From assembly GCA_944382925.1 (NCBI GenBank), contig CALWNX010000025.1, positions 1-51,460 of the forward strand: DNA of 51,460 bases, read 5' to 3'. This DNA comes from an uncultured Clostridia bacterium. GTDB taxonomy: Bacteria; Bacillota; Clostridia; Peptostreptococcales; Anaerovoracaceae. The notes under the pieces were generated by a model, which was not told the DNA's origin, did no database searches, and saw only the letters and a program-made list of their open reading frames with translations. Below, in pieces: positions 14,443-14,997 of the stretch. Every line of letters begins with the position of its first letter. Position 1 is the first letter of the stretch. Position numbers and translations under genes: made by a program.

Positions 14443-14511
14443 ATTTAACACATCTGCCTATCTCATGCAGAATGATATGCCTAAGCTCCGGGGCAGTTAT
14501 GCCCCGGAGCT

Positions 14512-14964
14512 CCAGACTATAGACAAACTCCGCTGCAAACAAATCTCGCCGCAGACAGCCCGCTGTCCGCGATTTTTAGCTTTCGCCACTATGTTGAAAA
14601 AACGCATGGCGCAAGATGAATTTTGCAGGAATTTTCTTCTCTTTTCTGCAATCTGGCCGGTCCGCAAGTTGAAAGGTGCCTCTTAGGCATACTCAAAACA
14701 AAATCGTGTTAAAGAAAAAGCACCATCAGGCAGTTCGCCTCGGCAAAATACTCCTTTTTTCAACTGGCTGATGCGCTTATTGGCATGAAAGCGGAGAATT
14801 TTTTTGCAAAATTCAACTTGAAACGTGTTGAATTTGAAAAAAGTTGAGAAAGGAAGCGCAATGCGCATTTCGCATGCGCATCAGATATATAATAAGTCCG
14901 CCGCAATCGAAAACCCAAAGACAACTTCATTTGTGAAATTGTCTGAGGTTTGCCTACAGTCTAA
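14512..14964 (+). mobile_element. family-2 non-coding TIR element (MITE-like), full-length copy C
   Basis: Inverted ends AGACTATAGACAAACTCC (14514-31) and GGTTTGCCTACAGTCT (14947-62). Flanked by a 27/29-identical duplicated hairpin. The left 45 nt are 41/45 identical to copy E. No credible ORF. Confidence 0.55.
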
Positions 14965-14997
14965 AAGCTCCGGGACAATTATGCCCCGGAGCTTTTG
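14965..14997. terminator. terminator hairpin between convergent pepD and the TetR gene (copy 2; copy 1 at 14483-14511)
   Basis: AAGCTCCGGGACA-ATTA-TGCCCCGGAGCTT followed by TTTT on the + strand and preceded by AAAA, so it could be bidirectional. Confidence 0.6.

Follow-up and report, generated by a model that had tools for sequence, protein, structure and literature searches.

Between the convergent genes for an M20 peptidase (pepD, 12964-14442, forward strand) and a TetR-family regulator (15082-15681, reverse strand), a 29-bp hairpin occurs twice, and the two occurrences enclose a segment of about 450 bp with inverted ends. The question raised by this locus is what the enclosed segment is and how the hairpin came to be present on both sides of it. 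The stretch of DNA analysed, referred to below as the window, comprises 51,460 nucleotides from an uncultured Clostridia bacterium; the Pfam families of the two flanking genes were taken from the same genes in contigs of other strains. With a probability of about 90%, the segment at 14513-14963 is a miniature element without transposase (MITE), derived from an insertion sequence of the IS1182 family and its ISBma2/ISCbo5-like clade, that was inserted with duplication of the hairpin.

Anatomy of the element between pepD and the TetR gene

The pepD-proximal hairpin, copy 1 of the target-site duplication (14483-14511, forward strand, AAGCTCCGGGGCAGTTATGCCCCGGAGCT), has a 12-bp stem and no T-run on its 3' side, while copy 2 (14965-14993, forward strand, AAGCTCCGGGACAATTATGCCCCGGAGCT) lies on the TetR side between an A-run and a T-run. 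The two are identical at 27 of 29 positions, as had been reported in an earlier note on this DNA; the pair is unique, since no further match to the 29-mer with up to three mismatches was found elsewhere in the window or in 100 shuffled controls. Both fold stably (-26.9 and -22.5 kcal/mol for copies 1 and 2, z about -5). Downstream of copy 1 the sequence reads CCAG, against TTTTG after copy 2, and the observation that only the second copy has a T-run holds for the window genome.

The same note had described the enclosed DNA as a 453-bp segment with inverted ends. The inverted ends were recovered, and comparison with related elements corrected the limits to 14513-14963, a length of 451 bp on the forward strand. 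The termini of this element, MITE-A, are imperfect: the left repeat (14513-14528, forward strand) reads CAGACTATAGACAAAC and matches the consensus CAGACTGTAGACAAAC at 15 of 16 positions, and the right repeat (14948-14963, reverse strand), whose reverse complement is TAGACTGTAGGCAAAC, matches it at 14 of 16. The borders of the hairpin duplication coincide with these termini within 1-2 nt. About 40 nt inside the left end, a terminator-like hairpin formed by GCAGACAGC and GCTGTCCGC and followed by ATTTTT is found at 14550-14577 (forward strand). The interior (14580-14852, no strand assigned) is a long imperfect palindrome with repeated TTCAACTTG words, in which element positions 68-340 pair with their own reverse complement. 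A subterminal stem-loop (14911-14951, forward strand) abuts the right inverted repeat.

MITE-A has no recognisable coding capacity. The open reading frames inside it gave no Pfam match, and tblastn searches with six IS1182 transposases found no transposase or remnant in the 51-kb window or at the MITE loci, the hits being at chance level (E at least 0.04) and none of them inside the elements. The element is therefore a non-autonomous derivative and not an insertion sequence itself, autonomous members of the family encoding a DDE transposase of about 450-490 aa. No Rfam family reached its gathering score anywhere in the window. When 14300-15200 was scanned for sigma-70 promoter-like sites, none was located inside MITE-A and one outside it, at 14445-14473, with 0.7 expected from shuffled sequences.

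Sibling copies and the two interior types

A second full-length element, MITE-B (466 bp, 23751-24216, forward strand), is located at the rnfB terminator. It lies between the terminator hairpin, which keeps its T-run (23719-23751, forward strand), and a second hairpin copy (24217-24249, forward strand) identical to the first at 30 of 33 positions. Its termini are those of MITE-A, its interior is rich in TACAACAT and AAAAGCCAACAT words, and the match between the ends of the two elements, already seen in the earlier note (with limits of 23753-24216 for the rnfB copy), was confirmed. The two share the left 47 nt at 94% identity and about 50 nt at the right, consisting of the stem-loop and the terminal repeat. 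BLAST detected no similarity beyond these ends, in agreement with the claim that the interiors are not homologous past roughly 45 nt on the left and 50 nt on the right.

Two further copies were found in the window. Copy C (50735-50823, reverse strand) is the inverted right end of a B-type MITE adjoining another hairpin (50704-50731); in the window genome it breaks off at about 50823, and two other strains (L002 and L004) have it in full length. A decayed A-type copy with no assigned strand (about 29396-29678) is 61-64% identical to the MITE-A interior in both orientations and possesses a degenerate right end, GGGGGTTTGGTGGAGA, and no left end. Both had been missed before. The window thus holds two full, one truncated and one decayed copy in 51 kb, and more are present in contigs of other strains. 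The sequence beyond the break in copy C (50824-51460), which ends in an AraC-like C-terminus on the reverse strand, is unrelated to the DNA that follows the element in L002 and L004 and suggests an insertion or rearrangement at this copy.

Each interior type recurs at several sites. The A-type interior is found again in the decayed copy, in L030 beside yet another hairpin and in L010, and the B-type interior at site C in L002 and L004 and upstream of rnfC in L005. Interior words are over-represented in both (five occurrences of TTCAACTTG against 0.4 expected in A; nine of TACAACAT against 0.6 expected in B), and both elements fold better than shuffled controls (z -2.3 for A and -3.9 for B); in copy A these two properties follow from the palindromic interior. 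The subterminal stem-loop at the right repeat occupies the same position in A, B and C and varies in sequence. The recurrence of each type, together with the lack of genes, argues that A and B represent two MITE subfamilies with common ends and without passenger genes. The variable-cargo design proposed in the note was an overstatement in this respect: no genes, Pfam families or transposase remnants are carried, and neither interior is particular to one site. The lengths of 451 and 466 bp, the inverted repeats, the target duplications, the multiple copies and the lack of Pfam or transposase signals are all features of MITEs.

Assignment to the IS1182 family

Relatives were searched for by their termini and by transposase homology. 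The terminal 18-mer occurs at 12 loci in IMG/VR, where by a hand estimate few would be expected by chance. One of these, on an unrelated Firmicute contig (L038), is a 159-bp element with CAGACTGTAGACAAAC termini between two 26-bp hairpin copies, of which only the second is followed by a T-run. The proposal of a mobile-element insertion at the convergent terminator is thereby strengthened, the same architecture being present at other loci and in unrelated Firmicutes.

ISCbo5, an IS1182-family element, is reported to insert at hairpins at gene ends (PMC3098183). Its copy on plasmid p3BKT015925 (L045, 35706-37318) contains a transposase ORF of 454 aa in a place with no annotated feature, and is flanked by a 29-bp direct repeat that is itself a terminator hairpin. 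The termini are CAGGCTGTTGATAAAC and, as reverse complement, CAGATTGTTCAAAAAG, and a stem-loop abuts the right end. The ISCbo5 transposase retrieved 2,272 plasmid records by tblastn, annotated as IS1182 family or ISBma2. Five further plasmid elements with these RefSeq labels were compared, from C. estertheticum, B. subtilis, B. pseudomallei (ISBma2), Brevibacillus and Providencia. All six are 1.56-1.61 kb long with CAG...CTG ends that match the MITE consensus at 11-15 of 16 positions (12-15 of 16 in the five other than ISCbo5). Direct repeats of 18-29 bp comprising the whole hairpin surround five of the six; among the five other than ISCbo5 they surround four, at 18-22 bp and with one imperfect. 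In most of the six a stem-loop abuts the right repeat.

A scan of IMG/VR with the C. estertheticum transposase as a single protein gave no match; the collection was scanned with a transposase alignment, and 26 full-length elements were analysed. Perfect and mostly palindromic direct repeats of 20-26 bp, for example AAAACCCGCCTAACTGGCGGGTTTT, were found in 14 of the 26. The termini of eight full-length elements (L071, L075, L077, L079, L080, L082, L084 and L098) match the MITE consensus at 15-16 of 16 positions, the left end of L075 being CAGACTGTAGACAAACTC. In the seven inspected in detail, a hairpin with T-run directly follows the left repeat in every case and a stem-loop directly precedes the right repeat in six. 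This stem-loop is found at the same position, with different sequences, in ISCbo5, L046, L048, L050, L070, L071, L075, L077, L079 and L080. The left-end terminator is clear in the full-length elements inspected, with the exception of ISCbo5; 5' terminators have been described for ISBma2-type elements (PMC2965389).

Against the terminal consensus of the clade, CAGACTGTAGACAAA, which starts with CAG and ends with CTG, MITE-A matches at 15 of 16 positions on the left and 14 of 16 on the right. Long, palindromic, terminator-like direct repeats, the other signature of the clade, are present at copy A (29 bp), copy B (33 bp) and L038 (26 bp). Direct repeats listed in ISfinder for the IS1182 family range from 0 to 60 bp.

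An exact 24-mer of the shared left end was absent from 185,579 GTDB species genomes and from IMG/VR and was found twice in JGI metagenomes, both times in MITE copies. The public collections searched yielded no full-length element with the same longer ends (47 nt on the left, about 50 nt on the right); partners with identical 16-18 bp termini are present in other organisms. Copies A and B had no BLAST match in the plasmid collection, and a full-text literature search with the terminal sequence returned nothing relevant, only unrelated siRNA work.

A transposase of the IS256 family was considered as a partner, being located beside element ends in two contigs, and was rejected: in both cases it belongs to a separate element nested inside a MITE. 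These two independent IS256-family insertions (Pfam Transposase_mut) lie at L008 1327-2339, where the B-type element of the rnfB site is interrupted after nt 33, and at about L015 15150-16556, inside a decayed MITE copy of the related species UMGS207. The nested element in L015 has its own repeats, which by eye we take to be IS256-like.

Comparison with known systems

The closest system is the ISBma2/ISCbo5 clade itself, to which ISBma2 (Burkholderia), ISBspe1, ISCbo5 (C. novyi and group III of Clostridium botulinum) and unnamed copies from Bacillus, Clostridium and Providencia belong. Shared with it are the CAG...CTG termini (11-16 of 16 to the clade consensus), the stem-loop abutting the right repeat in most copies, insertion at terminator hairpins at gene ends (PMC3098183), and direct repeats (18-29 bp in the clade) formed by the hairpin, of which only the downstream copy is followed by a T-run. 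A weak counterpart of the hairpin with T-run that the clade has just inside the left repeat may be present in copy A. MITE-A differs in its length of 451 bp against about 1.55-1.75 kb and in the lack of a transposase gene or remnant, and the MITE interior bears no relation to the non-coding ends of the full-length elements with which it was compared. At 29-33 bp, the MITE duplications are at or slightly above the upper range of the full-length elements.

IS1182-derived MITEs are known from Methanosarcina acetivorans, where the partner is ISMac2; they are likewise short, non-autonomous and multicopy with terminal inverted repeats (PMC3852290, table 4). Those archaeal elements are 160-169 bp long with direct repeats of 4 or 0 bp and no reported hairpin duplication, whereas the family described here belongs to bacteria (Clostridia), measures about 450 bp and is divided into two subfamilies with unrelated interiors. 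The mobile insertion cassettes (MICs) of IS231 in the Bacillus cereus group also combine IS ends with a non-transposase interior and conserved ends with different interiors (PMC6199540); they measure 0.7-3 kb and carry passenger genes, unlike the MITEs described here, in which no ORF matched a family. Insertion at hairpins by the clade, the 5' terminators of ISBma2-type elements and IS1182-derived MITEs were thus already known. New are the MITE family in uncultured gut Clostridiales, its two subfamilies and the comparative record of MITEs that inherit the duplication of a whole hairpin.

The insertion sites in other strains and in a related species

In the closest GTDB species genome, UMGS207, whose PepD is 73% identical, pepD and the TetR gene likewise converge, on one hairpin and with no element between them, a junction that can be read as the empty site at the between-species level. 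Within the species, the MITE is present at pepD/TetR in every strain contig that spans the site (L051 and L055) at about 96% identity. No empty site was found there, as all contigs spanning site A or site B carry the element or a deletion derivative. Several short-read contigs, L001 among them, end inside the pepD/TetR element.

In L051 the right terminal repeat is CAGACTGTAGACAAAC itself, matching the consensus at 16 of 16 positions, and the second hairpin reads AAGCTCCGGGGCATAACCGCCCCGGAGCTTAGGCAT. The latter sequence points to a perfect palindrome of 42 bp, ATGCCTAAGCTCCGGGGCA-GTTA-TGCCCCGGAGCTTAGGCAT, as the probable original target, which was probably cut symmetrically about 6 nt inside each end. 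Downstream of the second hairpin the window and L055 read TTTTG and L051 reads TTAGG, so that the T-run on the second copy is not universal. The loop of this hairpin is moreover flipped between L051 (10652-10690, CATAACCG) and the window (14964-15000, CAGTTATG), and L051 keeps the outer palindrome arm TTAGGCAT in place of the T-run. This suggests a loop inversion or gene conversion within the palindrome, with the T-run acquired afterwards in the lineage of the window. A divergence of 7-9% between the direct repeats marks the insertions as old.

The rnfB site carries the B-type element in some strains. In L005, L006, L009 and L011 the right half and the second hairpin have been lost by deletion between CTTGGTTTTTG repeats. 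One short contig (L010) has an A-type right end adjoining the rnfB hairpin where the window has a B-type left end. Another (L029), with an A-type left end joined to this hairpin, was set aside as a probable chimera of a low-coverage assembly formed through the shared 47-nt end. Since the site holds a B-type, an A-type or an opposite element end depending on the strain, one could speculate that MITEs at a fixed terminator swap interiors or orientation through their shared 47- and 50-nt ends, or re-insert into the duplicated hairpin, and so act as exchangeable 3'-end modules (terminator, insulator or small RNA) that retune convergent genes; we regard this as doubtful. Elsewhere in L005 (120-700), a different gene lies upstream of rnfC, and beyond it come a long hairpin and decayed B-type MITE sequence of about 500 bp in two orientations. 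All of this is missing from the window at 18512-18623.

Proposed insertion mechanism and effect on transcription

A scheme consistent with this anatomy can be put forward. A DDE transposase of the IS1182 type, coming from a full-length element located elsewhere or since lost and acting in trans, would recognise the 16-bp termini CAGACTGTAGACAAAC ... GTTTGTCTACAGTCTG and choose GC-rich palindromes, in practice intrinsic terminators at gene ends, perhaps in an extruded or symmetric form. One strand would be nicked on each flank of the palindrome, at a distance of about 20-33 bp from the other nick, and repair of the gaps would leave a complete hairpin on either side of the element. Here the hairpin that pepD and the TetR gene share at their convergent ends would have served as the target, with loss of the T-run from the upstream copy and retention of one by the downstream copy. 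The duplications themselves were seen in both the MITEs and their full-length relatives, always as palindromic, terminator-like hairpins at gene ends in which the T-run stays with the downstream copy; the staggered cut, the mobilisation in trans and the transcriptional consequences are deduced from them.

With respect to transcription, the earlier note had suggested that pepD was separated from its functional terminator by about 480 nt. This goes too far, as copy A contains its own hairpin with T-run at 14550-14577, which probably spares pepD a read-through of 480 nt. Transcripts that pass the T-less first hairpin may end about 130 nt after the stop codon. The signal is weak (9-bp interrupted stem, -11.1 kcal/mol, z -1.9), and copy B has no T-run at the equivalent position. 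In ISBma2-type elements, the left-end hairpin with T-run has been interpreted as shielding the transposase gene from read-through (PMC2965389). Hairpin copy 2 lies between an A-run and a T-run and so resembles a bidirectional terminator that would serve the TetR gene too.

Alternative explanations

Besides or instead of being selfish DNA, the element could be a domesticated functional module: a small-RNA gene, a 3'-UTR or terminator/insulator, or a source of outward promoters, with the TTCAACTTG words in A and the TACAACAT words in B as protein-binding sites. Fixation of the pepD/TetR insertion in every spanning strain contig with an interior conserved at about 96%, the strong excess of interior words (5 against 0.4 and 9 against 0.6 expected), the folding of both elements (z -2.3 and -3.9) and the T-run at the second hairpin in the window and L055, where L051 has TTAGG, would all fit such a role. 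An old neutral insertion would, however, likewise be fixed in one species, and the word excess and the folding follow from the internal palindrome. As no Rfam family reached its gathering score in the window and no sigma-70 promoter-like site lies inside the element, domestication is considered unlikely. Far less room is left for a phase-variable segment flipped between its inverted repeats by a site-specific recombinase, which we judge very improbable. The bounding inverted repeats agree with it, and the A-type right end of L010 at the place of the B-type left end at rnfB fits inversion, replacement or independent insertion equally. Yet no recombinase gene is found among the called neighbours of any copy (gene lists of sites A and B), and a switchable promoter would have no evident target downstream of convergent genes, the location of the elements. 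Transposition fully explains the hairpin direct repeats and the IS1182 termini, and recombination between the palindromic flanks could also produce an inversion.

The terminal TGTAGA, which we take to resemble an IS30 end, could speak for a MITE derived from the IS1630 type of the IS30 family, a type reported to target and duplicate inverted repeats of variable length. IS1630 of Mycoplasma fermentans makes duplications of 16-26 bp (PMC2853133; PMC3317919). The long duplication of inverted repeats is all that the present elements share with it; IS1630 has a transposase of a different family and 27-bp inverted repeats, and its termini, compared by description only, are apparently unrelated. The element termini match the IS1182 family at up to 16 of 16 positions, and the right-end stem-loop and the hairpin duplications are found in those IS1182-family elements as well. 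The IS30/IS1630 lead was dropped because of the match to the IS1182 termini, and an origin of this type appears extremely improbable. Practically no weight is given to a local segmental duplication or replication slippage that produced both hairpins independently of the inverted ends. It accounts for the bare fact of the hairpin duplication and nothing more, and it is refuted by the recurrence at independent loci: the borders are flush with the termini at two window loci with different hairpins, in L038 and in about 20 full-length relatives. The note had named a larger segmental duplication as a finding that would refute its reading, and the tie between hairpin duplication and inverted ends at separate loci rules it out. 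An IS1182-type MITE, inserted by transposition, is thus retained as the explanation for the pepD/TetR locus.

Other repeats in the window and in related contigs

Several further repeats were noticed. The core TTAGAGAATAAAATTTTGTCCTCTCTTCCC marks a second interspersed family, with members at window positions 7031-7169, 31900-32158 and 40189-40240 and in L002 at about 3670-3700, where it directly abuts an IS1182-type MITE. Its direct copies share 139 nt at 78% identity and its inverted arms are 77-91% complementary; it may be another MITE family. Two tandem arrays of 17-bp units were seen: about seven units of GCCGCCGGCATCCGCAA at 29685-29834, immediately 3' of the decayed MITE copy, and four to five units of CCTGGGCAGCACCGCAT at 7176-7260, adjoining the TTAGAGAATAAAATTTTGTCCTCTCTTCCC family. 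Repeated units of two kinds, one GC-rich (GCGCCGCGCCGCTGACAAAAATTGCGC) and the other AT-rich and palindromic (GCTGACAAATTTTGAAATTTTTTTGAAAAATGTCA), cluster in the intergenic region 44823-45251.

A 46-bp unit, CAGACTGTAGACAAACTCC-taaattt-AGAGTGTTGTTTGCAGTCTG, recurs in IMG/VR contigs of Listeria monocytogenes (L032-L037 and L039-L042, for example L035 7896-7941; also L031 at about 46-93). Similar to the left end of the full-length element in L075, where the repeat and its inverted copy pair into a terminator, it could be a solo left end or a minimal MITE. A permissive Rfam search returned only chance miRNA-like hairpin matches for this unit.

Significance of the element

To a specialist in insertion sequences the finding will be real but ordinary, as duplication of the whole hairpin is the usual mode of insertion in the IS1182 family. 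It has practical value for genome assembly and annotation. The element accounts for the breaks of short-read assemblies just after pepD and rnfB (L001, L007, L010, L052 and L056), and CAGACTGTAGACAAAC ends between two copies of a terminator hairpin provide an annotation signature for IS1182-family footprints in Firmicutes. Duplicated terminators beside ends of this type are scars of transposition and not regulatory designs. For the ISBma2/ISCbo5 elements a comparative picture of insertion is obtained, in which a duplication of 18-33 bp covers the entire palindrome and the downstream copy retains the T-run. The transposition mechanism of the IS1182 family is listed as unknown in one review (PMC6199540), and the duplication of whole palindromes supports a staggered cut that would be guided by the structure of the target.
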